DNA of 64,000 bases from Alphaproteobacteria bacterium. Lineage in GTDB: Bacteria > Pseudomonadota > Alphaproteobacteria > UBA2136 > UBA6156. The stretch lies in assembly GCA_049297695.1 (NCBI GenBank), contig JBAQUT010000036.1:986-64985 (forward strand), in the 5' to 3' direction. The notes under the pieces are model-generated. The model did no database searches. It worked only from the letters and a program-made list of their open reading frames with translations, and was not told the DNA's origin. Of the stretch, positions 1,914-51,276 are shown piece by piece. The position numbers were made by a program, and so were the translations under genes. Numbering within the stretch: the stretch's first letter is position 1; each line of letters begins with the position of its first letter.

Positions 1914-4271
1914 TTACCCCAACAACCCACCCAGCAGCCCTTTGCGGCGGGGTTTGGCTTTGGCAGGCACGGGCGTTTCTTCAACAGCGTCGGCGGCTAC
2001 AGCCAGCTTCACCACTTTCAGGGGTTCGTCGGTGCTGTCGGTGTCGGCTTGCTTTTTCACCTCCATTTTTTTCCGTTTGGCCACAATCACGGGCGTGTCG
2101 TCATCCGTCACCACGGCCACTTTGGCCACTTCCAAGGGTTTGTCCTCGGCAGGCGGGGCGGGGGGAGCCACATGCACGTGCTTGGCCTCGGCCTGTTTGG
2201 TGGGGCGTTTGATGGCCTGCTTCACCTCATCCAACGATGGGGCGGCGCGGGCGGCCATGGGGGCGTCCATCTCGGCCATAGGCGCTTCATCGTCCATGCG
2301 GCGGGGGCGTTCGCGTTCCGGCCCGCGTCCACGGCCACCATGGTTACGGTCGCGGCCGCCACGGTTGTCATCGCGGCCACGGCCACCGTTGCGGTCGTTC
2401 CGGTCGCGGCGGGGTTCGTCACCGCCTTCGGCACGGCCAGCATCCGTACGGGGTTCATCACGGTCGGAGCGGGGGCGGCGCTCTCGGTCGGGGCGTTCGC
2501 CGCGGGGGGCATCGTCGCGGTCGCGGCCACCTTTGGCACCATGATGCTGTTTGTAGCGTTGTTCGGGCGGCAGTTCGGGCTGTTCGCGCAGAATCACTTC
2601 CACCTTTTTGATATTCTCGCTGCCATCAGCCTTCACGGTCACCAGTTCCAAGCGGTGGTCGGGGGCCAGCAGGGTATCGTCGGCTTTGAACACCAGGTGG
2701 TATTTGTTTTTGGCTTCAAGGTCGGCCACCATGGCGCGCTTGCTGTTCATAATCCACATGAGGATGGAAGTTGCGGCGTGCACCACCACGCGGTCGGCGC
2801 CACGGCAATCTTCTTCTTCCAAGCGACGCAGCACCATAAGCGCGGCGCTGGCAGGGCTGTGAACTTGGCCCGTGCCGTTGCAATGGGGGCAGCTGATGAA
2901 GTGGTGTTCGGAGAGGCTAGGCCGCAAGCGCTGGCGGGATATTTCCATCAACCCAAACTCCGAGATATCGGTGTATTGCACGCGGGCACGGTCTTTCCGC
3001 AGCACTTTGCGCATGGCTTGCTCTACCTTGCGCACGTTGCGGTAGTCTTCCATGTCGATAAAGTCCACCACAATCAGGCCCGCAAGGTCGCGGAGGCGGA
3101 TGTGGCGGCCCAGCTCGTCGCAGGCCTCAAGGTTGGTTTTCACGGCCGTTTCTTCAATGTTCCGCTCGTGGGTGTTGCGGCCGCTGTTAATATCCACCGC
3201 CACCAAAGCTTCGGTGTGGTCGATAATCATGTAGCCGCCACTGGGCAATTGCACGCGGGAGAAGTTCAGCTGGTTCAGCTTTTGTTCCACCTTGTGGGCG
3301 GTAAACAAAGGCGTTTCGTCTTTATATTCCTTAATCAGCTTGGCGGCATCGGGCATCAGGGCCTTGGTGTAATCCTTCGCCACTTTGTAGGCGCGCTTGC
3401 CCGAGATAACCACTTCTTCAATGTCTTCCCGCAGCATGTCGCGCAAGGCACGGATAATCAGCGTACCGTCTTCGTGCACGCAGGCCACGTCGTCAGTCGT
3501 TTCGTAGGCTTTTATAATATTGTCCCACAGCGTGCGCATATTTTTATAGTCGTTCACCACGGCATCCACAGGCTGGCCCACACCGGCGGTGCGGATAATC
3601 AGCCCCATGTGGTTGGGCACTTTCATGGCGGCGTACATGTCGCGCAGCGTGCGGCGTTCTTCGGGGTCGGATATTTTGCGCGAAATACCGCCCGCAAACG
3701 GTGTGTTGGGCATCAGCACGGTGTAGCGGCCGGGCATAGACACATAGCTGGTAAGGGCGGCGCCTTTGCTGCCGCGTTCTTCCTTCACCACTTGCACTAG
3801 TATTTTTTGACCTTCTTTCAACACATCCTGAATGCGGTAGCGGCGGTAAATGCCGGGCTGGCGCTTGCGGTCGGAGCGGGGTTCGTCGCTTCCACCTTCA
3901 GCTGTGTTGCCCGCATCGTCGGCGGGAGGAGCCTCATCCGCGCCCTCGCTGCCATCATCCCGCAGGTGGCCGCGGCGGCGTTCGGCTTGTTCGGTAATTT
4001 CTTCCAGCAGTTCAGCCTTTTCACTATCCGGCACGGCAAAAAACTGGGGGTGCACTTCGCCAAAGGCCAAAAAGCCGTTGCGGGTGCCGCCATAGGTAAT
4101 AAAGGCCGCTTGCAGGCTCGGCTCAACGCGACTAACCACGCCAACATACAGGTTGCCTTTGTTTTGGGTTTTATCCGCGGTTTCGGCTTCAAAGTCGTCC
4201 AGCTTGGTGCCGTCTAAAATGGCAACGCGTGTTTCATCCAGGTGGGTGGCGTCAATCAGCATCCGTCTCAT
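1914..4271 (-). CDS. rne: ribonuclease E
   Basis: N-terminus MRRMLIDATHLDETRVAIL (S1 domain and catalytic domain); Arg/Asp/Glu-rich C-terminal scaffold; 785 aa. Confidence 0.9.
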   Translation of the reverse strand: MRRMLIDATHLDETRVAILDGTKLDDFEAETADKTQNKGNLYVGVVSRVEPSLQAAFITYGGTRNGFLAFGEVHPQFFAVPDSEKAELLEEITEQAERRRGHLRDDGSEGADEAPPADDAGNTAEGGSDEPRSDRKRQPGIYRRYRIQDVLKEGQKILVQVVKEERGSKGAALTSYVSMPGRYTVLMPNTPFAGGISRKISDPEERRTLRDMYAAMKVPNHMGLIIRTAGVGQPVDAVVNDYKNMRTLWDNIIKAYETTDDVACVHEDGTLIIRALRDMLREDIEEVVISGKRAYKVAKDYTKALMPDAAKLIKEYKDETPLFTAHKVEQKLNQLNFSRVQLPSGGYMIIDHTEALVAVDINSGRNTHERNIEETAVKTNLEACDELGRHIRLRDLAGLIVVDFIDMEDYRNVRKVEQAMRKVLRKDRARVQYTDISEFGLMEISRQRLRPSLSEHHFISCPHCNGTGQVHSPASAALMVLRRLEEEDCRGADRVVVHAATSILMWIMNSKRAMVADLEAKNKYHLVFKADDTLLAPDHRLELVTVKADGSENIKKVEVILREQPELPPEQRYKQHHGAKGGRDRDDAPRGERPDRERRPRSDRDEPRTDAGRAEGGDEPRRDRNDRNGGRGRDDNRGGRDRNHGGRGRGPERERPRRMDDEAPMAEMDAPMAARAAPSLDEVKQAIKRPTKQAEAKHVHVAPPAPPAEDKPLEVAKVAVVTDDDTPVIVAKRKKMEVKKQADTDSTDEPLKVVKLAVAADAVEETPVPAKAKPRRKGLLGGLLG

Positions 4272-40288: not shown

Positions 40289-42046
40289 TTAACGGTCTAA
40301 CGTTTCATAAAACGCCACCACGGCGCTGTGGGTTTTTACGTGGCGGGGTTGGATGGCTTGGGTGAGGTACAGGCCTTCCAAGCTGGTGGCGCGGCTAAGG
40401 GCCACGTACAGTTGGCCTTCGGCGAAGGTGCCGCCGTCGGCCAAATCAATCACGCAGCGTTCCAGCGTTTGGCCTTGGGCCTTGTGGATGGTGAGCGCCC
40501 ATGCCAAGGCTAGAGGAAACTGCACAAATGTGCCCGCCACCGTGGCTACGGGCGTGCCTTCGGCGCCCGCTTGGTAGCGCGTGCTTTCCCACTTTTCCCG
40601 CTCCACCTCAAACACGCCGCGGTCGGTGCGCACTTCGATGTTGTCGTCAGTTAATTTCAACACATGGCCCAGCGTGCCGTTCACCCAACGGCCCAGTTTG
40701 TCGTTGCGGGTGAACATCACTTTGGCCCCCACTTTCAAGGTGAGTTCGGCGGGAGTGGTGAACTCTTTTCCCGCCAAGTCGCCGGTGGTGTCGGCGTGGT
40801 AGGTGCGGGTAGGGGTGTTTAGCTTGGCCAACTCAGTGGCGTTGATGGCATCCACCGTGCTGTTACGGGCGGCCAGAATGACGGCATTTTCGGGCGGAGT
40901 GGCCACCACGCGGGCATTCAGCGGCCCTAGCACGCCACTGCCGTTGTTGCCGCTGCGGATGGAATTGAGCAGGTTGATAAACGGGGCATCGGTTTGGCGG
41001 AAAATATGCGTAAAGCGCAGGGTGGAAAACGCCCCAAGCTCCCACGCCGGTGTGGCAAAAAAGAACGGGTTGGGGTAGGTGGTGGCAAACACCTCGGCTT
41101 CTTCCCGCCGCACCACGGGGGGGAGCTGGCAGAGATCGCCCATCAGCACCAGTTGCACGCCACCAAAGGGTTTTTTGGAAAATTTTCCGTGTTTGCGGAG
41201 GAATTTGTCCATGGCATCAAACACGTCGGCCCGCACCATGGAGATTTCGTCGATGATGATGAGTTCCAGGTTTTCAATCACCTTGGGGTAACGGGCTTTG
41301 GGCACGGGTTGGCCCACCAACAGCTGGGGCTTGAAGCTGAAAAAGCTGTGGATGGTTTGGCCGCCCACATTCAGCGCCGCCATGCCCGTGGGGGCCAGCA
41401 CGGCGTACTTGCGTTTGGTGTCATTCAGATTTTTGCGCAGCCATTTTAAAAACGTACTTTTGCCGGTGCCCGCGCTGCCGAGGATGAGCAGATTTTCGCC
41501 CTCTTGGATGGTTTTCAGCGCGGTTTGGAATTCCGGCGTCACCTGTATTTTTTGGGTGGTGCTGGCGGGTTGCTCCACCCGTTTGGGTTCCGGCTTGGGC
41601 TTGGCGTAGGTGATGGGGGGAGGGGTGGGGTTGGCCTTCAGCGTTGGAATAACTTGGCCCAACTGCACCAGCTTGTAGGCGCAGGCGCGGGGGGTGCGGC
41701 GCAGGTTGGCGGCCAAAGGCTCCAGCGCATCGCCAACCTCGTGGGCAATGAGCAATCGGGCGGTATCGTCCTCGTTCCAGTGGGTGCCAAAGGGCAAAAT
41801 ATCGGCACCTTCGGGGTGGGGGGTTTTGTCGTTCATGATGGCGGTGTAGCGGCCGTAATCCAGCAGGTCGAGCAGGTGGGCGCGGCTTTCCACGCTGGTT
41901 TTGGTGCGGCCCAGCGTTTCGGCCAGCAGGTGGAAACGGGCCGTAAACGTGCCTTGCATATCCCGCAAACCTGCCGCCAGCGTGGCATCGTCGGCCGCGT
42001 TCCAGCGTTTGCCTTGGTTGGCGGGTTTGGGGGTGGTGTCGTCCAT
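40289..42046 (-). CDS. PIF1/RecD-like AAA ATPase DNA helicase
   Basis: LLILGSAGTGKST Walker A; LIIIDEISMV; start 42046 chosen for the GAGG RBS. The track ORF extends further in-frame. Confidence 0.7.
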   Translation of the reverse strand: MDDTTPKPANQGKRWNAADDATLAAGLRDMQGTFTARFHLLAETLGRTKTSVESRAHLLDLLDYGRYTAIMNDKTPHPEGADILPFGTHWNEDDTARLLIAHEVGDALEPLAANLRRTPRACAYKLVQLGQVIPTLKANPTPPPITYAKPKPEPKRVEQPASTTQKIQVTPEFQTALKTIQEGENLLILGSAGTGKSTFLKWLRKNLNDTKRKYAVLAPTGMAALNVGGQTIHSFFSFKPQLLVGQPVPKARYPKVIENLELIIIDEISMVRADVFDAMDKFLRKHGKFSKKPFGGVQLVLMGDLCQLPPVVRREEAEVFATTYPNPFFFATPAWELGAFSTLRFTHIFRQTDAPFINLLNSIRSGNNGSGVLGPLNARVVATPPENAVILAARNSTVDAINATELAKLNTPTRTYHADTTGDLAGKEFTTPAELTLKVGAKVMFTRNDKLGRWVNGTLGHVLKLTDDNIEVRTDRGVFEVEREKWESTRYQAGAEGTPVATVAGTFVQFPLALAWALTIHKAQGQTLERCVIDLADGGTFAEGQLYVALSRATSLEGLYLTQAIQPRHVKTHSAVVAFYETLDR

Positions 42047-42124
42047 AACCCTCTCTAACATATTTCTGACACGGCAATCAAATGGTCTTTTACGCCCTTG
42101 CATTGTTTTGGGGCATGGCCCATA

Positions 42125-42565
42125 AAGCAGGTACGGGCCTGTCCCGGTTTCGACGGAGCTTGAAGGGGTTCCCAAGGAGCATGCGGTGGGGGTTGGATTC
42201 CACCTAAAAAAGTCCAGCAGGCACTTAAATGCCAAATCGACTGTAGACAATAGCCTTGCGGCCCGTCGCGCTATGCGCGCCATGCCCATGGCTATGGCTG
42301 CCTAACCTAGACTCAGATTGGATTCTGACCTAGGCTAGACGCCCCAAGACCGTTTCCCACAGATTGGCGTGGTGGCGGACCCTTGGATTCATCCCCGCCA
42401 ATCTAGGTTCCCGTGGTGTCTTCACGCGGGTCGCGCCGAAATTAAGATGGGCAACCACAGGGTGCGGGGTGTCTGGCGCTAACTGTGGAACCACCAGACA
42501 CTAAGCATGTAGAGCCACACTTCAACGAGGTTCGGACGTGGGTTCGATTCCCACCAGGTCCACCA
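42125..42565 (+). ncRNA. ssrA: tmRNA (ssrA), one-piece
   Basis: 5' GGGCCTG pairs with 3' CAGGTCC-A-CCA including G3:U70. Conserved TTCGACGG, CCCAAGGAGCATGC and 3' CTAAGCATGTAG...GGTTCGATTCCCACCAGGTCCACCA. Internal frame GCC AAA ...GCT GCC TAA ends with Ala-Ala. Confidence 0.75.
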
Positions 42566-42755: not shown

Positions 42756-42830
42756 GGGCAGTTAGCTCAGCGGTAGAGCACAGCATTCACATTGCTGGGG
42801 TCGCAGGTTCGAATCCTGCACCGCCCACCA
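42756..42830 (+). tRNA. tRNA-Val (CAC)
   Basis: GGGCAGTTAGCTCAGCGGTAGAGC...anticodon loop TTCACAT...ACCGCCCACCA. Confidence 0.8.
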
Positions 42831-42854: not shown

Positions 42855-42940
42855 GGAGGAATTCCCGAGCGGCCAAAGGGGACTGACTGTAAATCAGTTG
42901 GCGTACGCCTTCGAAGGTTCGAATCCTTCTTCCTCCACCA
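42855..42940 (+). tRNA. tRNA-Tyr (GTA), long variable arm
   Basis: GGAGGAATTCCCGAGCGGCCAAAGGGGACTGACTGTAAATCAG...TTCCTCCACCA. Confidence 0.85.
42886..42940 (+). repeat. attL: 3' 55 nt of tRNA-Tyr, identical to the copy at 51116-51170
   Basis: ACTGTAAATCAGTTGGCGTACGCCTTCGAAGGTTCGAATCCTTCTTCCTCCACCA present twice. Confidence 0.8.
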
Positions 42941-43001
42941 TTTTGTTTTATAATATCTTTTCTTGAAAATCCCTCTTCCAAAATTCTCCCTAAAATCTCT
43001 C

Positions 43002-43023
43002 TTTGGGACACTCTTGGGACATT
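43002..43023. repeat. 22-bp direct repeat TTTGGGACACTCTTGGGACATT (copy 1, ~60 bp inside attL)
   Basis: Identical copy at 50977-50998; internal TTGGGACA x2. Confidence 0.6.
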
Positions 43024-43081: not shown

Positions 43082-44341
43082 TTACCTTACTCCCACCAAC
43101 TCATCCCACCGCGTGGTATAGGCACGGGAGAGAGATTCCCGCTTCATCCCCCAGCCCTGTTTAGTGCCAAGGCTCCCCAGCCGCACAAAGGCCTTGCCGT
43201 AGCGGGTATCGAGATTGTCGAGCGTTTGCATCAGGGCTTGGGTGCGGGCGGTATCGGCCCCGTCCAGCAAGCTGGGTTGGTGCTGGGTGGCAGGGATAAG
43301 GTCAAGAAGCAGGATGCCCGCCTTCTTATAGGCAAAGCCCTTGCGGTAAAGGGTGTGGAGCAAGCGGTGGGCGTGCCGTACCAGTTCGGCAGTGTCAGCG
43401 GTGGCGTAGGGCAACCCCATGGCTTGGCTTGCACTATATTGAGAGGCCTTGGGCTTGAACCTGTTAGTATGGGCAAACACCAGCAACCCTTGGGCTAACA
43501 GATTATCCCCTCTTAGCTTGCCAGCGGCGCGGGTTACATAGGCGGCCACCGCTTCTTCCAGTTCGGCCAAGGTGGTTACTTCCCGCCCGAAGCTCCGCGT
43601 GCTTTGGATGCTCTTGCGGGTGGGTTGCACCAGTTCCAGCGGCAAGCAGCTTACCCCCTGCAACTCGCGTACAAGGCGCTCCATCACCACGTTGTACTGT
43701 TTCCGCATGGAGGCGGCATCGGCGTTGCGAAGGTCTAGCCCGCTGTTTATCCGCTGTTCTTTTAACTTCTCGGAAAACTGCCGCCCGATGCCCCATAAAT
43801 CTCCTACGTCCATAGCTCCCAGCGCTGCCTCTTGAGAGGCGTTATCAGACAACAAACAGACACCGCCCAAGGCAGGGTTCTTTTTGGCGGTGCGGTTGGC
43901 GGCTTTGGCGAGGGTTTTGGTGGGGGCAAGGCCGATGCTCACAGGGATGCCCGTCCATTGCTTCACCTTGGCCCGTAGCGCCTGCATTGCGCCTGTTAAG
44001 TGTTCCAAGGGGATGCCCCGCACATCCAAAAAGGCCTCATCCACGCTATACACCTCCACCGCTGGGGCGGCATCCCGCAGCACACTCATCACCCGCGCAC
44101 TCATATCCCCGTAAAGCTGATAGTTGGAAGAAAACACCACCACCCCGTTCTGGCGGCAGAGTTTCTCCACTTTGAACATAGGCGCCCCCATCGGTATCCC
44201 CAGCGCCTTGGCTTCGTTGCTACGGGCTACCACACACCCATCATTATTCGATAACACCACAATGGGTTTGCCTTCCAGCTTGGGGTTGAAGGCCCTCTCA
44301 CACGAAGCATAGAAGTTGTTGCAGTCTACCAGCCCATACAT
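43082..44341 (-). CDS. umuC: Y-family DNA polymerase V catalytic subunit UmuC
   Basis: [23 protein letters not shown] catalytic motifs; 419 aa. Confidence 0.85.
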
Positions 44342-44345
44342 CGCC

Positions 44346-44726
44346 CTACACCTTATGAATCACGTTGCTCACCACACCCCACACCACCAACTCATCCCCC
44401 AGCACCTTGGGCGGCTTGCCTTGTTCGCCCTGCAAGGCCCATTGCCCGTTGACCTTTACCAGCCGCCGCACAAACATCTCTCCCGCCACCACCGCTATCA
44501 CCACGCTCCCCACGGCGGGGGTAAGGCTCTTGTCCACCACCATTAAATCACCTTTAAAGATACCAGCCCCCTGCATGGCATCGGCTTTGGCCCGCACGAA
44601 ATAGGTGGCGGCGGGGTGCTTCACCAAATAGGCGTTCAAGTCCAAGTAACCCTCTAAAAAGTCATCGGCAGGGCTGGGGAAGCCAGCGGCTACGGAACCA
44701 TACAAGGGCAGGAGTTGGGGTTGCAT
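44346..44726 (-). CDS. umuD: UmuD-like S24 peptidase-fold protein with catalytic Ser and Lys replaced (Ala/Arg)
   Basis: VAAGFPSPA cleavage-site region aligns to UmuD CGFPSPA; ASGDSM becomes AKADAM and TVKKL becomes FVRRL. Confidence 0.7.
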
Positions 44727-45031: not shown

Positions 45032-45334
45032 ATGCACACCATGAAACCCCTCTCTATTGCTGTTCTATTACTGTTATCGGCTTCCGCCGCCCATGCCGAA
45101 TGGGTGAATGGCTACACTCGCAGCAATGGCACCTACGTTGCCCCACACGCTCGTAGCGCCCCCGATGGCAACCGTTTCAACAACTACTCCACCCAAGGCA
45201 ACACAAACCCCTACACAGGCCAAGCGGGAACCGTGAACCCTTACAGCGCCAACCAAGGCGATGCAGGAAACGGCTTTGGTGGTAGCGGCTTCAACCAACC
45301 CAGCACGCCCCGTGGTTTTGGCGGGTGGAGATAA
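45032..45334 (+). CDS. small secreted Gly/Asn-rich hypothetical protein
   Basis: Signal peptide MKPLSIAVLLLLSASAAHA; 100 aa. Confidence 0.4.
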   Translation: MHTMKPLSIAVLLLLSASAAHAEWVNGYTRSNGTYVAPHARSAPDGNRFNNYSTQGNTNPYTGQAGTVNPYSANQGDAGNGFGGSGFNQPSTPRGFGGWR

Positions 45335-45480
45335 GCCATGCAGCAAGAAGATTCAGCCTCACGCCCTGAAATGGTGATTGTGTTTGGCTTTTTTACCCTC
45401 TGGGGGTTCATCGTTGGGCTGGGGGTGGGGTGGTGGGTTTGGTGTTGACATTGAATACAATGCTCTGGTACACCTGCCAT

Positions 45481-46386
45481 ATGGCCAAGATAGCAATCCA
45501 AAAATCCACTGGTGTTCCTGTGCATGCCCGTGACGCCTCCACAACAGCGTTAGAAAGAGGTTTAAACAGCCCTTTTGACTTTGCCTGTATGGAGTGCGGG
45601 GTAACATTGCGCTGCACGCATTACGCCAAACCGTTTTCGGATAAAGACCATGTGTATTTCGGTGTCTATGGTGACGCCTACAAGCATGAACCTTACTGCA
45701 ATTCAGCATATGGCTCGGAGTCAAATGGAAACACGCATAGCCATGAAGAGTGGGAACAAGATGATGTCGAGGTTGTCTCTCCCCGTGTCATGCAATTTGA
45801 ACCCCAAACAAGAAATTTCCCAGAGACTGACATTTCATCCCGCGAGGTTCGTTTAACAGGGCAACAAAAATCCAGAGAAACCCTCACCGATTTGATATGG
45901 AGAAACGGAACAAGTCTTTCCGCCCTCCGCAAAGCCAATGCCTATCAATTTAGAATTAGCGGCCAGATTTTCTCTATGGCTCAAATCTTTAATTCACCAA
46001 CAACAACTCTCATGAATGGTGTTGATGGTAAATCCTTTAATGGCGGTGTAGCATTTGGCTTAGCTCGGATATATAGCAAACCTGCGCCATCTGACCGAGT
46101 ATCCATCAACTTTATGGAACGGTTTAATCATGACGGAAATCTCATCCCTGTTATGGGCAAACTAGACCTTGATACATTACACCTTAACGACCCTATGAGG
46201 CACTGGATAAGAGATGGAATCCAACAAGGTGGGTTGTATGATATAGCCATTAAATGGCGCGAATCAGCTTTGGAGCGTGCCAAGAGAGACGGAGGAAGAT
46301 GGGAGTTTATGAAGGAATCGCCTCAGCTTTGGTTTACGGACATTGAGAAGATAGCTATCAAAGCAAGTTCTGGTAACGGTCGCTAA
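45481..46386 (+). CDS. hypothetical protein (island cargo, reduced GC) with N-terminal Cys/His cluster
   Basis: FACMECGVTLRCTHY...; no family recognised; the track ORF starts at 45430 and the first ATG is 45481. Confidence 0.45.
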   Translation: MAKIAIQKSTGVPVHARDASTTALERGLNSPFDFACMECGVTLRCTHYAKPFSDKDHVYFGVYGDAYKHEPYCNSAYGSESNGNTHSHEEWEQDDVEVVSPRVMQFEPQTRNFPETDISSREVRLTGQQKSRETLTDLIWRNGTSLSALRKANAYQFRISGQIFSMAQIFNSPTTTLMNGVDGKSFNGGVAFGLARIYSKPAPSDRVSINFMERFNHDGNLIPVMGKLDLDTLHLNDPMRHWIRDGIQQGGLYDIAIKWRESALERAKRDGGRWEFMKESPQLWFTDIEKIAIKASSGNGR

Positions 46387-46625
46387 ACCTCATCCGTAAT
46401 CAACTCCCTCCACACCCTCCAAATCTCTAAGTTTTCTAACGAATACCTCCCATGGATGAGGTTGGCCTTGCTAATCGCCTCCCTCCCAGCCTCGGTTTTA
46501 GGCCCCGTAGCCTTCCCCCCATGCAACCGACAACAGCCATTCCGCATGGCAGGTTGACGGCATAGTAGGCGGGTACGTTTGCAGCGGCACTTGCACTTGG
46601 GCAGGGTATGAATGGGAACGGACAT
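46383..46625 (-). CDS. small Cys-rich zinc-ribbon-like protein with an HGG motif (phage-associated type)
   Basis: CKCRCKRTRLLCRQPAMRNGCCRLHGGKATGPKT. Confidence 0.4.
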   Translation of the reverse strand: MSVPIHTLPKCKCRCKRTRLLCRQPAMRNGCCRLHGGKATGPKTEAGREAISKANLIHGRYSLENLEIWRVWRELITDEV

Positions 46626-46629
46626 GGGG

Positions 46630-47238
46630 TTATTCCTCGGTTTTGGGTTTACTGCCCCCACACCCCGCCACCGCCCCCACCACGGCTTGGCCGCCAGCTT
46701 GCACCTCCACCTTCTCCACCACCACACGCTGGGTGCTTATCCCCGCTTGCCGCATTTGGCGTAGCAAGTCCATTTGCCGCAGCAACACGTTTTGAGCTTT
46801 GTGGGCACGGTTGGTGTAATACCCCGCCACCTCCAAAGTGTTATCATCCAACGAGCGTGCCAGCATCCGCATTGCCACATGGTTGGTCGCCACTATCTGG
46901 GCTGCCAACATGCTTTCCAGTTCGTTTTGCGGAGCCAAACCATAAAGCTGGGCCACGATGTTGTTCACGGCATTGGCATCTTTGCTTGGCAAAATGGATT
47001 GCAGGTGGGTCAGCTTCACGTTGATGCTCCCCGCATCCAACGTGCCGAACGCTTGCGCCAGCGTGAACGTGGTTTGAGGTTCGTTCATCACGATGTGCAT
47101 CGAACGATTGCCATCGCCCGTATCTTCCAGCGCAAACTCTTTGCGGTTCTTGTAATCCTCCAGCTTGGCGTTCAACACGGCCCGCTTTTCGGGGGTCAGT
47201 TCAAGTGTCCCTTTGGGTTTGGGGGTGAGGTCGGTCAT
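46630..47238 (-). CDS. hypothetical protein (island)
   Basis: 202-aa ORF downstream of the AAA_25 gene. Confidence 0.4.
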   Translation of the reverse strand: MTDLTPKPKGTLELTPEKRAVLNAKLEDYKNRKEFALEDTGDGNRSMHIVMNEPQTTFTLAQAFGTLDAGSINVKLTHLQSILPSKDANAVNNIVAQLYGLAPQNELESMLAAQIVATNHVAMRMLARSLDDNTLEVAGYYTNRAHKAQNVLLRQMDLLRQMRQAGISTQRVVVEKVEVQAGGQAVVGAVAGCGGSKPKTEE

Positions 47239-47304
47239 GATTTTAGCTTTCGTTAGGTGTTCGTTCGTTCGGTTTCCTAGGAGTGCCGAACGCCGAACGG
47301 GTTA

Positions 47305-48228
47305 TTAGGCGGCTTCAGATTCATTTACCCATGTGTTGATGGTGGATGGGCTGGCCTTCAGTTGGCGGGCAATCTCACGCTGCCCCACACCTTGTTCATG
47401 CAGCACAATCGCTTGTTGCCGCCGTGGGTCAACTTTGCGCCCGCCTGTGTAGGGTTCGTGGTGCCAGATAGCGCCTTGGTCGGTCATCATAAGCCGTACC
47501 AAGGTGGGTTTTGATTCCTTGCCTTGCAGGTGGCGTTTCTTGTCAAAGTTCACCACAAAGTGGCTCCCTTCATCGGGTTCAGGCCCCGCAGGTTCGTACA
47601 ACTCAATGGTGATATCGTTCACCACGTTGTGTTGGCTGCTCCCCCGTTGGTCGCCCCCTTTACCAGCATGGTGCAAAATCAGAATAGCCATGCCGCTGGA
47701 ACGTAACGCCATCAACCAGCTTTGCACGTTATCCCATGTGCCCGAATCATTCTCTCGCATGTTGCTGAACAACGTGCTTTTGTTGTCCAGTACCAGCAAG
47801 TCACAGCCCACGTCATCCACGCGGCACATCAGCTCTTGCTGCCCTTCTTCCGTGTTCAGGTGCTTAATGCGGAACGGGCTTTCACATTGTGCCATGCTGT
47901 AAACAAACAGGTTACCGTGGGTGCCCTGTTTGCCTGTCATGGCATCCAGCCGCCGCATCAGCTCTTGGGAGGGCATTTCGCCATCCACATACACCACACG
48001 GGCTTGGCGGGCAGGGGTGAACCCCAAAAAGGGTTCTCCCCGCGCCAACGCAACCGAGAGGCCCAGCGCAAAGTTGCTTTTTCCAATCCCCGCCTTCGCA
48101 TAAAGCATGTTGATACTGTTGGTCAGCAACCACGGGGGCATGAGTACCTCCCGTGGTGGCAGTTCCAACGCCTGAAAGTCCTCGGCGGCAAAAAAGCCCC
48201 AAGGTGCGTTCGTAAGAGGATGGGTCAT
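47305..48228 (-). CDS. RecA-like NTPase (AAA_25 / RepA-DnaB-like replicative loader family) with C-terminal HTH
   Basis: AKAGIGKSNFAL Walker A; VLDNKSTLF; C-terminal HEQGVGQREIARQLKASPSTINTWV HTH. Confidence 0.6.
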   Translation of the reverse strand: MTHPLTNAPWGFFAAEDFQALELPPREVLMPPWLLTNSINMLYAKAGIGKSNFALGLSVALARGEPFLGFTPARQARVVYVDGEMPSQELMRRLDAMTGKQGTHGNLFVYSMAQCESPFRIKHLNTEEGQQELMCRVDDVGCDLLVLDNKSTLFSNMRENDSGTWDNVQSWLMALRSSGMAILILHHAGKGGDQRGSSQHNVVNDITIELYEPAGPEPDEGSHFVVNFDKKRHLQGKESKPTLVRLMMTDQGAIWHHEPYTGGRKVDPRRQQAIVLHEQGVGQREIARQLKASPSTINTWVNESEAA

Positions 48229-48647
48229 CGCACCACCTCCTCATGCACAATGCAATCAAGTGACCATATGCGAATGTAAGGCGCACCAGTCGGCGGTGTA
48301 ATGAGTTTGATGCGGAAATTGAACCCATACTCACGAAGCCTATCAAAAGCCCCCCAAAACCACTTAGGCGGCTTAGTTTGGGTGCTGAAGTGGCCAAAGC
48401 GTAGCATCTCCAGCGCCCTCACCTCAAAACCGTGAGGAGTCGCCAGTTTGGGCACCATTCCTTTACCCCGCTTCCGCCAAACATACCCATGCGGCAGCGG
48501 ATTTTGGTTGAACCACGGCAACGGTTGGGTTACTTTCCGATTGTTAGCCTTAGTTTTAGATTTGTTTAAAACCTCACGCTCGCCCTTGTAAGCACGTGGG
48601 GTTTTTTGTTTAGCGGCCATCGGTGTTACCCTCCCCTTGCTGGCCAT
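48225..48647 (-). CDS. hypothetical protein (possibly N-terminal partner of the replicase)
   Basis: 140-aa basic ORF overlapping the AAA_25 start by 4 nt. Confidence 0.35.
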   Translation of the reverse strand: MASKGRVTPMAAKQKTPRAYKGEREVLNKSKTKANNRKVTQPLPWFNQNPLPHGYVWRKRGKGMVPKLATPHGFEVRALEMLRFGHFSTQTKPPKWFWGAFDRLREYGFNFRIKLITPPTGAPYIRIWSLDCIVHEEVVR

Positions 48648-48864
48648 CTAGCCAAGCAAAAAACTTGGGTTCATCAATGTAAAGGCGCTTGCCAATCCTC
48701 ACCACGGCAATATCAAGGCCATTGCCTTTAACGGGGCCAACGCTGGAATGTCTGTCTTTGGCTTTCCACAAAAGGTTGCGCATTACGGAGGGCGGAAACG
48801 CGGGATTGCGTTCGGCGAATTTGTCCAGCGTCAGAATCAGCCGCTGGGGTGTTTCATTTGTCAT
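48610..48864 (-). CDS. AlpA/excisionase-family HTH (HTH_17) DNA-binding protein
   Basis: VVRIGKRLYIDEPKFFAWLDG resembles AlpA/Xis C-terminus. Confidence 0.55.
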   Translation of the reverse strand: MTNETPQRLILTLDKFAERNPAFPPSVMRNLLWKAKDRHSSVGPVKGNGLDIAVVRIGKRLYIDEPKFFAWLDGQQGEGNTDGR

Positions 48865-48981
48865 AGGTTTTATTCCTATCAGTTACCGCTAGGCCCCTGC
48901 ATCAATACTTGAGCATTCGCTAGCGTTGATAGGATTAGAACATGAGTTTATCTATATGAAAAGTAACGAGTATTTGCAAAG

Positions 48982-49872
48982 TCATTCACTTTGCAAACTT
49001 TTAATTACTTCGGTTACTAATCTCAACGATGGAGAACCATCTCCCATAGCTTTCATTGTTAACTTTGCAAGATTGTTTCTTGAAAAATTGGGATTTCGAT
49101 TCATAATGGGAATTGCAAAACTCTTAATAAGTTCATTTCTAGCTTTTGCTTGTTCTTTATTTTTAGTTAATCCCTTGCCCTGTCCTTTTGTGATTTTATA
49201 TCCCATTGTACCAAACATTCCTTGGGTCAAAAGATAATCCCCGCGCTTCATAGCAATGTTAAAATCATAATTTAGCCATTGATTTATTTGTCTTAAATCT
49301 CGTAAGTCTACAAGGTCAAGATTCCTACATCTTCCAATTTCTATCTCATCAGGGGATTCTGAGTAGTGAGACTGTTCAAGAATTTCTGAGTATTCACCGC
49401 ATCCAATCCATGAATGCATCCTTTCAGGTGCATAGTACTCTCCAACTCTTATTAATTTATCAATGTAGAGAAGATAGAGTGGATTCTCATAAATAAATTC
49501 ATGGGGCATTGGATATTCAGTTTTTAGGTAATTTTTGTAAAGCTCATACCTAATTACTTCTAATCCAGGGTGTATTAAAGGATGAGCTTTAAGCTGTTCA
49601 ATAATCCACGGTTCATTGTGACAATGCAGTAATTGAAAATCACGTTGCCGCTGACGTTCAATGTACTCTTTATTTAGACGTTCAATTTCATATTCAACAA
49701 TCCTACAGGGATAAGGTATGGTTGATTGTTTTAGTAAATCCTTTAGTAAGCTTTCACTATAGGGCACAGCCTCTATATCATTTAATCTTGAAATATGTCC
49801 TAAATCATATGGGGTCGCATATTCAATTTCATGAATTTTACAATCAAGAAGCTTAAAGTAGTGAGGTATCAC
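48982..49872 (-). CDS. hypothetical protein, strongly low-GC (~35%) cargo next to the integrase
   Basis: 296-aa ORF; no recognisable family; 4-bp overlap with the int stop. Confidence 0.5.
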   Translation of the reverse strand: MIPHYFKLLDCKIHEIEYATPYDLGHISRLNDIEAVPYSESLLKDLLKQSTIPYPCRIVEYEIERLNKEYIERQRQRDFQLLHCHNEPWIIEQLKAHPLIHPGLEVIRYELYKNYLKTEYPMPHEFIYENPLYLLYIDKLIRVGEYYAPERMHSWIGCGEYSEILEQSHYSESPDEIEIGRCRNLDLVDLRDLRQINQWLNYDFNIAMKRGDYLLTQGMFGTMGYKITKGQGKGLTKNKEQAKARNELIKSFAIPIMNRNPNFSRNNLAKLTMKAMGDGSPSLRLVTEVIKSLQSE

Positions 49873-50942
49873 CCAAACACCCTCTCCGTCATTTTGCTCA
49901 CCACTTCAACCGCGTGGTTATCGGCAAGGTGGGCATAGCGTTTCACCATTTGGATGCTGCGGTGGCCCAGAATGGCGGACAGCACGGGCAGGGTAACGCC
50001 TGATTCCAACAGGTAGGTGGCGGCGGTGTGGCGGAGGTCGTGGAAACGGAAGTCCTCTATTTTGGCTTCTTTGAGTGCGGCCTCCCAATGATTGGCTGGG
50101 TCAAGTGGAGCCATACCATCGGCACGGGGGAAGATGAGGTCGGTGTTCAAGCGCCTTACCTTGCTGGCTTCCTGCAAAACTCTATGCGCCAAGCCTGTCA
50201 GGGGTACGGAGCGTTTATCGCCGTTCTTACTATCTTCCACCCGTATCACCTGCCGCGTAAAATCCACATCCCGCCAGCGGAGGTTTAAGAGTTCACCCTT
50301 ACGCATCCCCGTACAAATAGCCATGACAACAAGGGGGTAAAGGAGCGGATGTCGGCCCTCCGCCTTACAGGCTTCCAACAGGGCTTTGCGTTCATCGGCG
50401 GAGAGATAGCGCACGCGGGCGTTGTTGGGTTCCAGCTTTCTTACTTCATTCAAAGGATTAAGGCGAATCCAGTTCAACTCCTTGTGGGCATACGCTAAGG
50501 CGGCGGAAAGGGCTATGAGGTAATGGTTGACGGTGGCGGCCTTGATACGTTGGGCATCCTTGACGTTCCGCCATGTCTTTTGCATGAGTTCCCGCTTGTA
50601 GGTGTTGATTTTGTCGGCGGTAATGTCGATGAGGTATTTATCCCCCAGCCGCTCCTTCCACCACATAAGTTGCTTTTCACGTTGGGCGTACTGATAAGCC
50701 CCCACAGTGTGTTTATAGTTGATAAGGTAATCGGTAATGGTTTCATGAAGGGTACGGACAGCGGCCTCATGGTTTTCAAACTTCAAACCGCGCTTGATGT
50801 CCGCTTCCTCTTTTTGTACCCAATCCTTGGCATCGGAGAGGCGTTCAAATGAGGCGCTTTTGGGTTTATGGCCCTTTAGTCTTATTTTTGCCCGATATGT
50901 TGGGACACCGTTCCGCCCTTTACGCTTTTCAATAACCGCCAT
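49869..50942 (-). CDS. int: tyrosine-type site-specific integrase (P4-like)
   Basis: N-terminal arm-binding region MAVIEKRKGRNGVPTYRAKIR; catalytic HDLRHT...LGH...Y (KRYAHL). Confidence 0.85.
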   Translation of the reverse strand: MAVIEKRKGRNGVPTYRAKIRLKGHKPKSASFERLSDAKDWVQKEEADIKRGLKFENHEAAVRTLHETITDYLINYKHTVGAYQYAQREKQLMWWKERLGDKYLIDITADKINTYKRELMQKTWRNVKDAQRIKAATVNHYLIALSAALAYAHKELNWIRLNPLNEVRKLEPNNARVRYLSADERKALLEACKAEGRHPLLYPLVVMAICTGMRKGELLNLRWRDVDFTRQVIRVEDSKNGDKRSVPLTGLAHRVLQEASKVRRLNTDLIFPRADGMAPLDPANHWEAALKEAKIEDFRFHDLRHTAATYLLESGVTLPVLSAILGHRSIQMVKRYAHLADNHAVEVVSKMTERVFG

Positions 50943-50976: not shown

Positions 50977-50998
50977 TTTGGGACACTCTTGGGACATT
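50977..50998. repeat. 22-bp direct repeat TTTGGGACACTCTTGGGACATT (copy 2, between int and attR)
   Basis: Identical to 43002-43023. Confidence 0.6.
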
Positions 50999-51115: not shown

Positions 51116-51170
51116 ACTGTAAATCAGTTGGCGTACGCCTTCGAAGGTTCGAATCCTTCTTCCTCCACCA
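51116..51170 (+). repeat. attR: duplicated 3' 55 nt of tRNA-Tyr
   Basis: Identical to 42886-42940; not preceded by the 5' half of a tRNA. Confidence 0.8.
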
Positions 51171-51255
51171 TATTTGCCCCAAGGGGGCTTATGACAAAGC
51201 AAGAAGAAGGAACAACGGCTTCACACGGCCGCAGGCCACATACAAACCAGCCGTC

Positions 51256-51276
51256 ATCCTTCTTCCTCCACCATTT
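51256..51276 (+). repeat. third, 21-bp copy of the tRNA-Tyr 3' terminus (ATCCTTCTTCCTCCACCATTT)
   Basis: Lies 85 bp beyond attR. Confidence 0.55.

Follow-up and report, generated by a model that had tools for sequence, protein, structure and literature searches.

The DNA considered here is a window of 64,000 nt (the whole stretch that was analysed) from contig JBAQUT010000036.1 of a metagenome-assembled genome (MAG; assembly GCA_049297695.1) of an Alphaproteobacteria bacterium. It contains an island of 8,230 bp, whose sharp borders are formed by two copies of a 59-nt direct repeat from the 3' end of a tRNA-Tyr gene. From attR inward, the island encodes a tyrosine integrase (int), orf296, a module of five minus-strand genes, the plus-strand genes orf318 and orf100, and finally umuD and umuC (Table 1). 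The module is composed of orf84, orf140, a gene for a RepA-like AAA_25 ATPase of the hexameric helicase type (hereafter the helicase), orf202 and a gene for a small HGGxSTG zinc-ribbon protein (hereafter HGG). Judged from their sequences, these five genes appear to form the regulation and replication core of an intact integrative island. An earlier note on this DNA had compared the module with the core of a phage satellite; its description proved largely right, and its interpretation is partly supported, as a reasonable lead that is not diagnostic.

Proteins encoded by the island were compared with Pfam, NCBIfam and PHROGs, and with PADLOC for defence functions, while tRNA and tmRNA genes were identified using ARAGORN and Rfam. 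Island borders, gene families, synteny, gene fusions and backbone homologues in capsid-forming, satellite-like elements are reported as observations, and every activity, origin, helper and packaging role as a prediction.

Island borders and the five-gene module

All five open reading frames (ORFs) of the module are present, consecutive and tightly packed at 46383-48864, as the earlier note had reported, with no pseudogene or frame disruption among them. As called, orf140 extends over 48225-48647 and the HGG ORF over 46383-46727; for orf140, the ATG codon at 48620 behind a GGAGG Shine-Dalgarno sequence is the likely start (131 aa), as is the ATG codon at 46625 behind GAGGA for HGG (80 aa). The 'several' 4-nt overlaps claimed previously were overstated, as the module contains a single true one (orf140/helicase gene), a second (int/orf296) being located outside the range noted. 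The overlap between orf84 and orf140 amounts to 11 nt (38 nt with the upstream ATG), the helicase gene and orf202 are 66 nt apart, and the ATG of HGG follows the orf202 stop codon after 4 nt. A programmed frameshift joining orf202 and HGG was considered because the HGG frame is open for 98 nt upstream; it was rejected in view of the Shine-Dalgarno sequence and the ATG 4 nt past the orf202 stop, a stop-to-ATG spacing that is identical in the window and in related islands L003, L135 and L136.

L003 and L135 display the same succession of a putative winged helix-turn-helix (HTH) gene, a small ORF, the AAA_25/HTH gene, orf202 and HGG, four of the five encoded proteins being 50-68% identical to their counterparts; the arrangement thus goes beyond chance. 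orf84 occupies the position expected of a PICI (phage-inducible chromosomal island) regulator, and its earlier designation as an AlpA-like HTH protein was a positional guess, since the protein matches no Pfam, NCBIfam or PHROG family. Profile comparison using hhalign assigned a probability of 55% (E=1.2e-4) to an HTH_17 cluster and of 4% to an AlpA cluster, so that the AlpA label was not confirmed. The single-sequence AlphaFold2 model of orf84 (predicted local distance difference test score, pLDDT, 64) exhibited an H-H-beta3-H pattern, and a fold search with this model returned no significant match. No match to orf140 was obtained in Pfam, NCBIfam, PHROGs or PADLOC; its slot is filled by ORFs of 101-166 aa without a Pfam match in L002, L003, L004, L129 and L135, indicative of a slot that is probably fast-evolving.

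The two att cores were shown to be 98% identical (one mismatch), with the last 55 nt of tRNA-Tyr being duplicated. The 22-mer TTTGGGACACTCTTGGGACATT, which comprises two TTGGGACA units, is located just inside attL and again, without change, just inside attR. The unit TTGGGACA is present in five copies of a single orientation, the fifth at 50900, and an analogous pair of repeats is found in related locus L127; these units may represent the arm sites of the integrase. Following excision, the candidate attP junction would read GCTGGTCAAA, the 59-nt core and GTTTTATAATATC, and the candidate attB junction the 5' half of tRNA-Tyr, the core and GCCCCAAGGGGGC. A third, partial copy of the core (its last 21 nt) is present at 51256-51276, 82 nt past attR; it agrees with the attL copy throughout (100% identity), unlike attR with its one mismatch, and it may be the scar of an older insertion at the same tRNA gene. 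Promoter and terminator counts were at chance level.

Table 1. Positions in the window of the island genes, att sites and repeats
Feature	Position	Strand	Description	Basis
attL	42886..42944	+	59-nt core, 3' part of tRNA-Tyr (gene 42855-42940)	Repeat search; ARAGORN, Rfam
Arm-type repeat	43002..43023	+	TTTGGGACACTCTTGGGACATT, two TTGGGACA units, just inside attL; putative arm site	Repeat search
umuC	43082..44341	-	Y-family translesion polymerase, putative cargo	phrog_1268, 1.6e-148
umuD	44346..44726	-	S24 self-cleaving subunit, putative cargo	NCBIfam NF007621, 122.5 bits (cutoff 110)
orf100	45032..45334	+	Small accessory protein, N-terminus signal-peptide-like	phrog_29674, 6.6e-15
orf318	45430..46386	+	Putative cargo, convergent with module	ORF call
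HGG	46383..46625	-	HGGxSTG zinc-ribbon protein, 80 aa	NF041373, motif
orf202	46630..47238	-	All-helical (model), putative partner of HGG	Alignment, AlphaFold2
Imperfect inverted repeat	47259..47299	.	GTTCGG/GAACGAAC units in 66-nt gap after helicase gene; candidate origin, operator or attenuator	Sequence, TRF, k-mer scan
Helicase gene	47305..48228	-	RepA-like AAA_25 hexameric-helicase-type ATPase with C-terminal HTH, 307 aa	Pfam
orf140	48225..48620	-	Probably 131 aa, between regulator and helicase	ORF call, start reading
orf84	48610..48864	-	Small putative winged-HTH protein in AlpA/excisionase slot	Family alignment, hhalign
Inverted repeat	48867..48941	.	ATCCTATCA...TGATAGGAT upstream of orf84; candidate operator/promoter region of operon	Repeat search
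orf296	48982..49872	-	Low-GC variable gene, 4-nt overlap with int	ORF call, composition
int	49869..50942	-	Tyrosine integrase (Int_N + Phage_integrase)	Pfam 1.6e-35; phrog_1 3e-71; 67% identical to L003 integrase
Arm-type repeat	50977..50998	+	Identical 22-mer, just inside attR; putative arm site	Repeat search
attR	51116..51174	+	Second copy of 59-nt core	Repeat search

The helicase and the elements that share its backbone

The reading of this protein as a RecA-fold AAA_25 ATPase with a C-terminal HTH was confirmed: it matches PF13481 (AAA_25; 5e-31, 108 bits against a cutoff of 27), as well as HTH_29 and HTH_23 at residues 269-305. A profile based on the protein and 12 relatives identified RSF1010 RepA (1g8y; 2e-11) as the best solved structure, followed by RadA, and its C-terminus aligned with NarL/LuxR-type HTH domains in the PDB. 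Residues G47, G49, K50, D148, N149, H186, H187, Q194, R195 and G196 are invariant in the family alignment, as are the motifs Walker A (GxGKS), Walker B (DN), HHAGK and QRG, and PHROG matches correspond to the helicase halves of primase-helicase families. The protein is thus predicted to be a helicase of the RepA/DnaB type that possesses a DNA-binding domain of its own, an architecture that would suit an initiator-helicase.

Close relatives of the island, encoding helicases with 44-67% identity to that of the window, were found on metagenome contigs. A further 120 loci (26-41% identity) were gathered from a one-genome-per-species scan and IMG/VR, and 122 related loci were counted. Most similar in organization is L003, with the order int (67% identical), orf234, orf85 (68% identical to orf84), orf128, helicase, orf213 (51% identical to orf202), HGG (55%), an orf100 homologue and umuDC. 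L135 encodes a P4-type integrase, orf336, an HTH_17 protein, orf166, the helicase, an orf202 homologue and HGG, followed by O-antigen genes, while in L002 and L127 a P4-type integrase gene precedes a small HTH gene, a small ORF, the helicase gene and, further downstream, an orf100 homologue and umuDC. L001, L004 and L129 display a similar layout with other cargo. The backbone is therefore found with two integrase types, and its targets include at least tRNA-Tyr, tRNA-Ser and tRNA-Leu. L127 is a 9,447-bp contig with paired arm repeats, which begins and ends with one and the same 30-nt stretch from the 3' end of a tRNA; this fits either a circle or an att-bounded unit. Across the family, approximately 64 of the 122 related loci have an integrase gene no more than 5 kb upstream on the same strand, and the region ~1 kb upstream of the helicase gene encodes AlpA in 33 loci, an HTH_17 protein in 13 and an orf84-like protein in 15.

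Five IMG/VR loci of 7-11 kb (L085, L086, L088, L094 and L095) and three genomic loci were shown to encode an HK97-type capsid protein, an S78 protease, a portal protein, an HNH protein and the large terminase subunit (TerL). Three of these, L085, L088 and L095, are elements of ~10 kb in which the place of the regulator is taken by an orf84 homologue and that of the replicase by a homologue of the helicase, next to Phage_capsid, Peptidase_S78, Phage_portal and TerL genes. No tail gene was present among the L085 ORFs scanned, and L085 ends at tRNA-Leu; capsid, portal and TerL genes without a tail represent the published architecture of capsid-forming PICIs (cfPICIs). In L088, 56-nt TGGTGCA-rich repeats (2369-2424 and 3428-3483) flank the helicase gene, as do repeats at 2707-2745 and 3766-3804 in L085, and such flanking repeats resemble the two-sided iteron origins of PICIs.

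Since complete capsid modules are present in relatives that share its left arm, the island might be the degraded remnant of a capsid-forming PICI or prophage, in which the morphogenesis genes were lost and the left arm and later cargo kept. The third partial att copy hints at past rearrangement, and the low-GC orf296 is compatible with a recent insertion. This derivation is nevertheless improbable: all eight closest relatives lack capsid genes and yet possess intact, tightly coupled ORFs in the same order, the HK97-type capsid module was counted in only 3 of 80 genomic loci (a lower bound), and the reading frames of the module are undisturbed.

At eight loci of Desulfovibrionaceae, including Bilophila wadsworthia (L033, L044, L048, L052, L053, L063, L065 and L080), the backbone int - AlpA - AAA_25/HTH is followed, directly behind the helicase gene, by a MobA/VirD2 or Mob_Pre relaxase gene. 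Their gene content suggests that these loci constitute a family of integrative mobilizable elements (IMEs). Other loci, without capsid or relaxase genes, encode orf202/HGG or a DUF5681 protein behind the helicase. In a neighbour-joining tree without bootstrap support, the relaxase loci formed one clade and the capsid-bearing loci were placed at four separate positions, whereas the window formed a separate clade together with L001-L004, L127 and L129, from which both capsids and relaxases are missing.

The relaxase loci raise the alternative that the island itself is an IME, i.e. the same backbone moved by a co-resident conjugative element through an unrecognised oriT, perhaps with orf202-HGG or orf140 as relaxosome accessories. 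The single relaxase clade is consistent with such a route, as are the absence of any phage gene from the island and the kinship with IncQ RepA of mobilizable plasmids, which provides both the nearest structure and the sole matches among named plasmids. These matches, however, show only 28% identity over 57% of the protein; no relaxase, coupling-protein or mobilization Pfam match was obtained in the window, L001-L004, L127, L129 or L135; the window clade is distinct from that of the relaxase loci; and the families indicated by the HGG domain are those of phages and not of plasmids, with only three matching plasmid records. An IME is therefore considered unlikely. Clustering of the ATPase with plasmid RepA proteins, named in the earlier note as an outcome that would speak against a satellite, is observed only at the superfamily level and not for the clade of the window.

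The orf202-HGG cassette

For orf202, 32 homologues were detected; they contain no Pfam domain and share the strongly conserved motif NExEGMLAAQxVAxH and a C-terminal QRVVVExVxVxAGGQAVVGAV motif; its AlphaFold2 model (pLDDT 80) displays six helices and a disordered tail. HGG was correctly recognized by the earlier note as a small Cys-rich protein. It scored 27.9 bits against NF041373 (HGG_STG, a 38-aa Cys-rich motif), formally just under the cutoff of 29, carries the motif CRLHGGKATGPKT and is 88% identical to a protein named 'HGGxSTG domain-containing' by NCBI. Its domain follows the pattern C-x10-C-x9-CxxH and then HGGKSTGP. A word-indexed search for relatives returned three matches only, while an exhaustive search yielded 1768 cluster representatives (E<=1e-3). 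Most relatives are 80-130 aa in length; in some, the HGG domain is N-terminal in proteins of 210-240 aa, and in others it is C-terminal, following repeats that by eye resemble the LAAxHxxxMRL motif of orf202.

orf202 and HGG are fused in L050 and P0151 and, in terms of sequence, read as one unit. The cassette was also found behind Toprim-DUF927 and Toprim-DUF3987 primase-helicases in other integrase islands; being located behind several replicases, it is tied to the replicase slot rather than to one replicase family. In L125 (8799-16657), an orf202 homologue in a small island adjoins BrxC/BrxD-like and SNF2 helicase genes, a neighbourhood that suggests defence cargo in related elements.

A possible connection to phage packaging is provided by phrog_1889 and phrog_9231, to which the HGG domain belongs and which are both labelled 'terminase small subunit' (TerS). 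The 80-aa HGG of the window weakly matches only the N-terminal part of phrog_9231 (E=1.9e-3), while P0182, in which the HGG domain is N-terminal, matches phrog_1889 over its whole length (1e-25), which the window protein does not. Bacillus phage Flasso has a single HGG-like gene, its first coding sequence, which adjoins the annotated pac site. No paper naming HGGxSTG, and none pairing AAA_25 with phage satellites, was found in the literature searched.

On this basis, orf202-HGG could be envisaged as a portable 'helper-capture' cassette: a split DNA-recognition protein, akin to the N-terminal zinc ribbon of one phage small-terminase family, that would plug in behind interchangeable replicases (AAA_25, Toprim-DUF927 and Toprim-DUF3987) and let helper phages package capsid-less islands of alphaproteobacteria, chlamydiae and relatives, with one int-wHTH-RepA-like backbone being re-used for relaxase-bearing, capsid-forming and minimal hitchers. 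This proposal is speculative and regarded as doubtful in its full form.

Affiliation of the island and its possible mode of spread

The order int - regulator - replicase is that of the left arms of PICI, cfPICI and P4 elements as defined previously (PMC10085698, PMC6092414). The island resembles PICIs and cfPICIs (Fillol-Salom 2018; de Sousa 2023) in its succession of int, a variable accessory slot, a small regulator and a replicase, in its integrase gene and specific 59-nt att site at tRNA-Tyr, in its small size and absence of tail or lysis genes, and in that homologues of orf84 and the helicase build the left arm of the ~10-kb capsid/portal/TerL elements. It differs in that no capsid-morphogenesis or size-redirection gene, TerL, portal or head-tail adaptor/connector gene and no clear TerS gene was matched in the island (Pfam, NCBIfam and PHROGs), the own capsid, portal and TerL genes of a cfPICI being present in the distant L085, L088 and L095. 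Furthermore, its regulator is not a Pfam AlpA, its replicase is a RepA-like helicase without a primase, and there is no clear two-sided iteron origin. The layout of int, alpA and primase/replicase described in the earlier note was accordingly upheld for the order of int, HTH slot and RepA-like helicase, and not for the primase or for a bona fide AlpA. Following the logic of SatelliteFinder, the island would be at most a 'type C' element with three core genes, a class that its authors set aside as ambiguous because other mobile elements share those three genes.

PICMIs, minimalist satellites of Vibrionaceae, are defined by int, AlpA (PF05930/PF12728) and a primase (DUF3987/DUF5906) beside fis (PMC10803314). 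With these and with marine VEIMEs the island has in common a content of six to eleven genes, the lack of capsid-remodelling genes, a core of int, small regulator and replicase, and a cargo hotspot. In PICMIs, iolg overlaps int by 4 nt, in parallel to orf296, and DUF3987, the PICMI primase marker, is one of the replicases that orf202-HGG follows elsewhere. Conversely, the island is integrated at tRNA-Tyr and not at fis, its replicase is AAA_25 and not DUF3987/DUF5906, orf84 remains below Pfam thresholds, and the island, known here from its genes alone, shows no sign of packaging as concatemers. P4-like elements share integration at a tRNA gene, a small HTH regulator and a single helicase-type replication protein, and relatives L001, L002, L127, L129 and L135 have P4-type integrases with Arm-DNA-bind_3; the window integrase, by contrast, lacks the P4-type arm-binding domain, and no Psu, Delta, Sid, epsilon or alpha match was obtained (Pfam and PHROG).

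With RSF1010/IncQ RepA, the helicase shares the RecA-fold AAA_25 family and the aligned Walker A, Walker B, HH..K and QRG motifs; the similarity (~28% identity) is confined to the ATPase core, to which the window protein adds the NarL/LuxR-like HTH, and it is encoded in an integrative island without a RepB primase, RepC initiator or mob genes. As to IMEs, the sister helicase clade has the order int - AlpA - helicase - relaxase, whereas no Relaxase, Mob_Pre or other MOB match (Pfam) and no recognised oriT were found in the window or its clade. Taken from gene content, the island thus appears to be a member of neither the PICI, cfPICI, P4-like nor PICMI family, and would work in the manner of a PICI or cfPICI left arm.

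The following course of events would be consistent with these features. The integrase, acting on the TTGGGACA arm sites, would recombine the two 59-nt cores and release a circle, with orf84, in the AlpA/Xis slot and at the head of an operon orf84-orf140-helicase-orf202-HGG, serving as excision factor or activator. The C-terminal HTH of the helicase may recognize an origin near its own gene, for which the GTTCGG/GAACGAAC repeat is the only candidate, and a weak one; the helicase would unwind this origin and host primase and polymerase would copy the circle. orf202 and HGG may then act as one DNA-binding unit marking island DNA for the packaging machinery of a helper, while umuDC, orf100, orf318 and orf296 would be cargo.

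No structural, lysis or conjugation gene, no capsid, tail, relaxase or primase domain and no clear terminase was matched in the island (Pfam, NCBIfam and PHROGs), which therefore appears unable to transfer alone. It is probably a mobile, helper-dependent integrative island with the five-gene operon as its core. The single most likely reading, albeit tentative and unproven, is a minimal, capsid-less phage satellite of the PICMI, VEIME or 'type C PICI' kind. A phage helper, likewise proposed with reserve, is suggested by the capsid-forming relatives, by the HGG-TerS link and by analogy with the minimal PICMI/VEIME satellites. As relatives of the core also serve elements moved by conjugation, phage and conjugative transfer are both candidate ways of spreading.

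Several observations weigh against a phage satellite. The island lacks every described hijacking gene of satellites (no Psu/Delta/Sid, capsid-size redirection gene, full TerS or capsid gene). In the tree mentioned above, the window clade is placed apart from the capsid groups as well as from the relaxase clade, and a monophyletic helicase branch is coupled to relaxases, so that the backbone would also serve conjugative hitchers. Because the same core is present in relaxase-bearing elements, the layout alone does not identify a phage satellite; of the assignment to PICI/P4-type satellites made earlier, the int-regulator-replicase order and the intact island stand, and the hijacking genes are missing from a core that a relaxase clade shares. 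orf84 is not demonstrably AlpA, that identity being weakly supported, and orf202 has no significant fold neighbour in the PDB and no Pfam, NCBIfam or PHROG match. The HGG-TerS link rests on weak matches and on PHROG labels that are themselves predictions, and on the one prophage-like IMG/VR contig examined the fused orf202-HGG gene follows the tail genes and is not beside a terminase. Only three distant helicase relatives were found among INPHARED phages. The iteron-type origin repeats that the earlier note had proposed to look for nearby were not encountered, as TRF and repeat scans revealed short motifs only, with no iteron array or origin, and the GTTCGG pattern is not above chance in its count over the whole window. 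Finally, the exact att core is absent from JGI metagenome contigs and IMG/VR, neither of which therefore yielded an attP, attB or related att site; a scan of metagenome contigs for close relatives with the helicase likewise returned nothing.

Among the cargo, umuDC (polymerase V) is located at the far end of four related islands (the window, L002, L003 and L127/L128), which have different integrases; umuC of the window is 51-68% identical to that of L002, L003 and L127. Upstream of umuD, no clear LexA box of the CTGT-N8-ACAG or GTTC-N7-GTTC type was seen by eye. L135 instead carries O-antigen polymerase and glycosyltransferase genes as cargo. orf100, with homologues of 71-79% identity in L001 (6049-6348), L002 (4045-4347), L003 (4657-4956) and L127 (5685-5984), shows the highest conservation among the accessory genes of the group, above that of the helicase; its signal-peptide-like N-terminus is a reading of the sequence rather than the output of a predictor. 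The GC content of orf296 is 31-39%, as compared with 52-60% around it in the island. No family match was obtained for orf296 or orf318 in Pfam, NCBIfam or PHROGs, and a defence role for orf296, orf318 and orf100 was dropped, as PADLOC gave no match to any of them. The slot following int is occupied by unrelated ORFs, which often overlap int by 4 nt, in approximately 33 of 64 related loci; by analogy, it resembles a cargo hotspot, the accessory region of PICIs or a counterpart of the integrase-overlapping gene of PICMIs.

The recurrence of umuDC in four related islands suggests selection on the cargo, and could be accommodated by a self-contained replicative island without a dedicated route of transfer, spread by transformation, generalized transduction, gene transfer agents or vesicles, or now effectively fixed, in which the core would only maintain and amplify umuDC after excision. 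No transfer or hijacking gene was recognisable with Pfam, NCBIfam, PHROGs or PADLOC, and no att junction was recovered from the public collections scanned, both in keeping with this alternative. On the other hand, the association of the backbone with two types of integrase and with a minimum of three tRNA targets implies that it has often moved horizontally, there is hardly any difference between the att repeats and none between the arm sites, the identical 30-nt ends of L127 at a tRNA 3' end are those expected of a circle or att-bounded unit, and no maintenance role is obvious for the conserved orf202-HGG cassette. An island without any transfer route of its own is thus rated a minor possibility, and helper-dependent movement, by phage or otherwise, is preferred.

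Next to the island, a one-piece tmRNA gene (42135-42565; Rfam RF00023, 98 bits) is followed by tRNA-Val (42756-42830) and tRNA-Tyr (42855-42940), placing three classic targets of island integration within 800 nt. A standard one-piece tmRNA is unusual in a genome labelled Alphaproteobacteria, and the taxonomy of the MAG may therefore be loose. A PIF1-like helicase ORF (40289-42289; Pfam PIF1, 5.7e-30) reaches the tmRNA gene and, as called, overlaps it, its true start therefore being further downstream.

The backbone of int, a small winged-HTH protein and a RepA-like HTH helicase is compact, conserved and widespread, and common to elements that bear relaxases, elements that form their own capsids and elements that do neither. 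For the majority of genomic islands, no means of transfer is known. The shared backbone makes testable how helper-dependent elements swap hijacking modules and what a satellite minimally needs. Two features deserve follow-up: the orf202-HGG cassette, which is the best candidate for the missing transfer function of the island, and the recurrent umuDC cargo, since the repeated travel of error-prone polymerase V genes on such islands bears on stress-induced mutagenesis in environmental bacteria.

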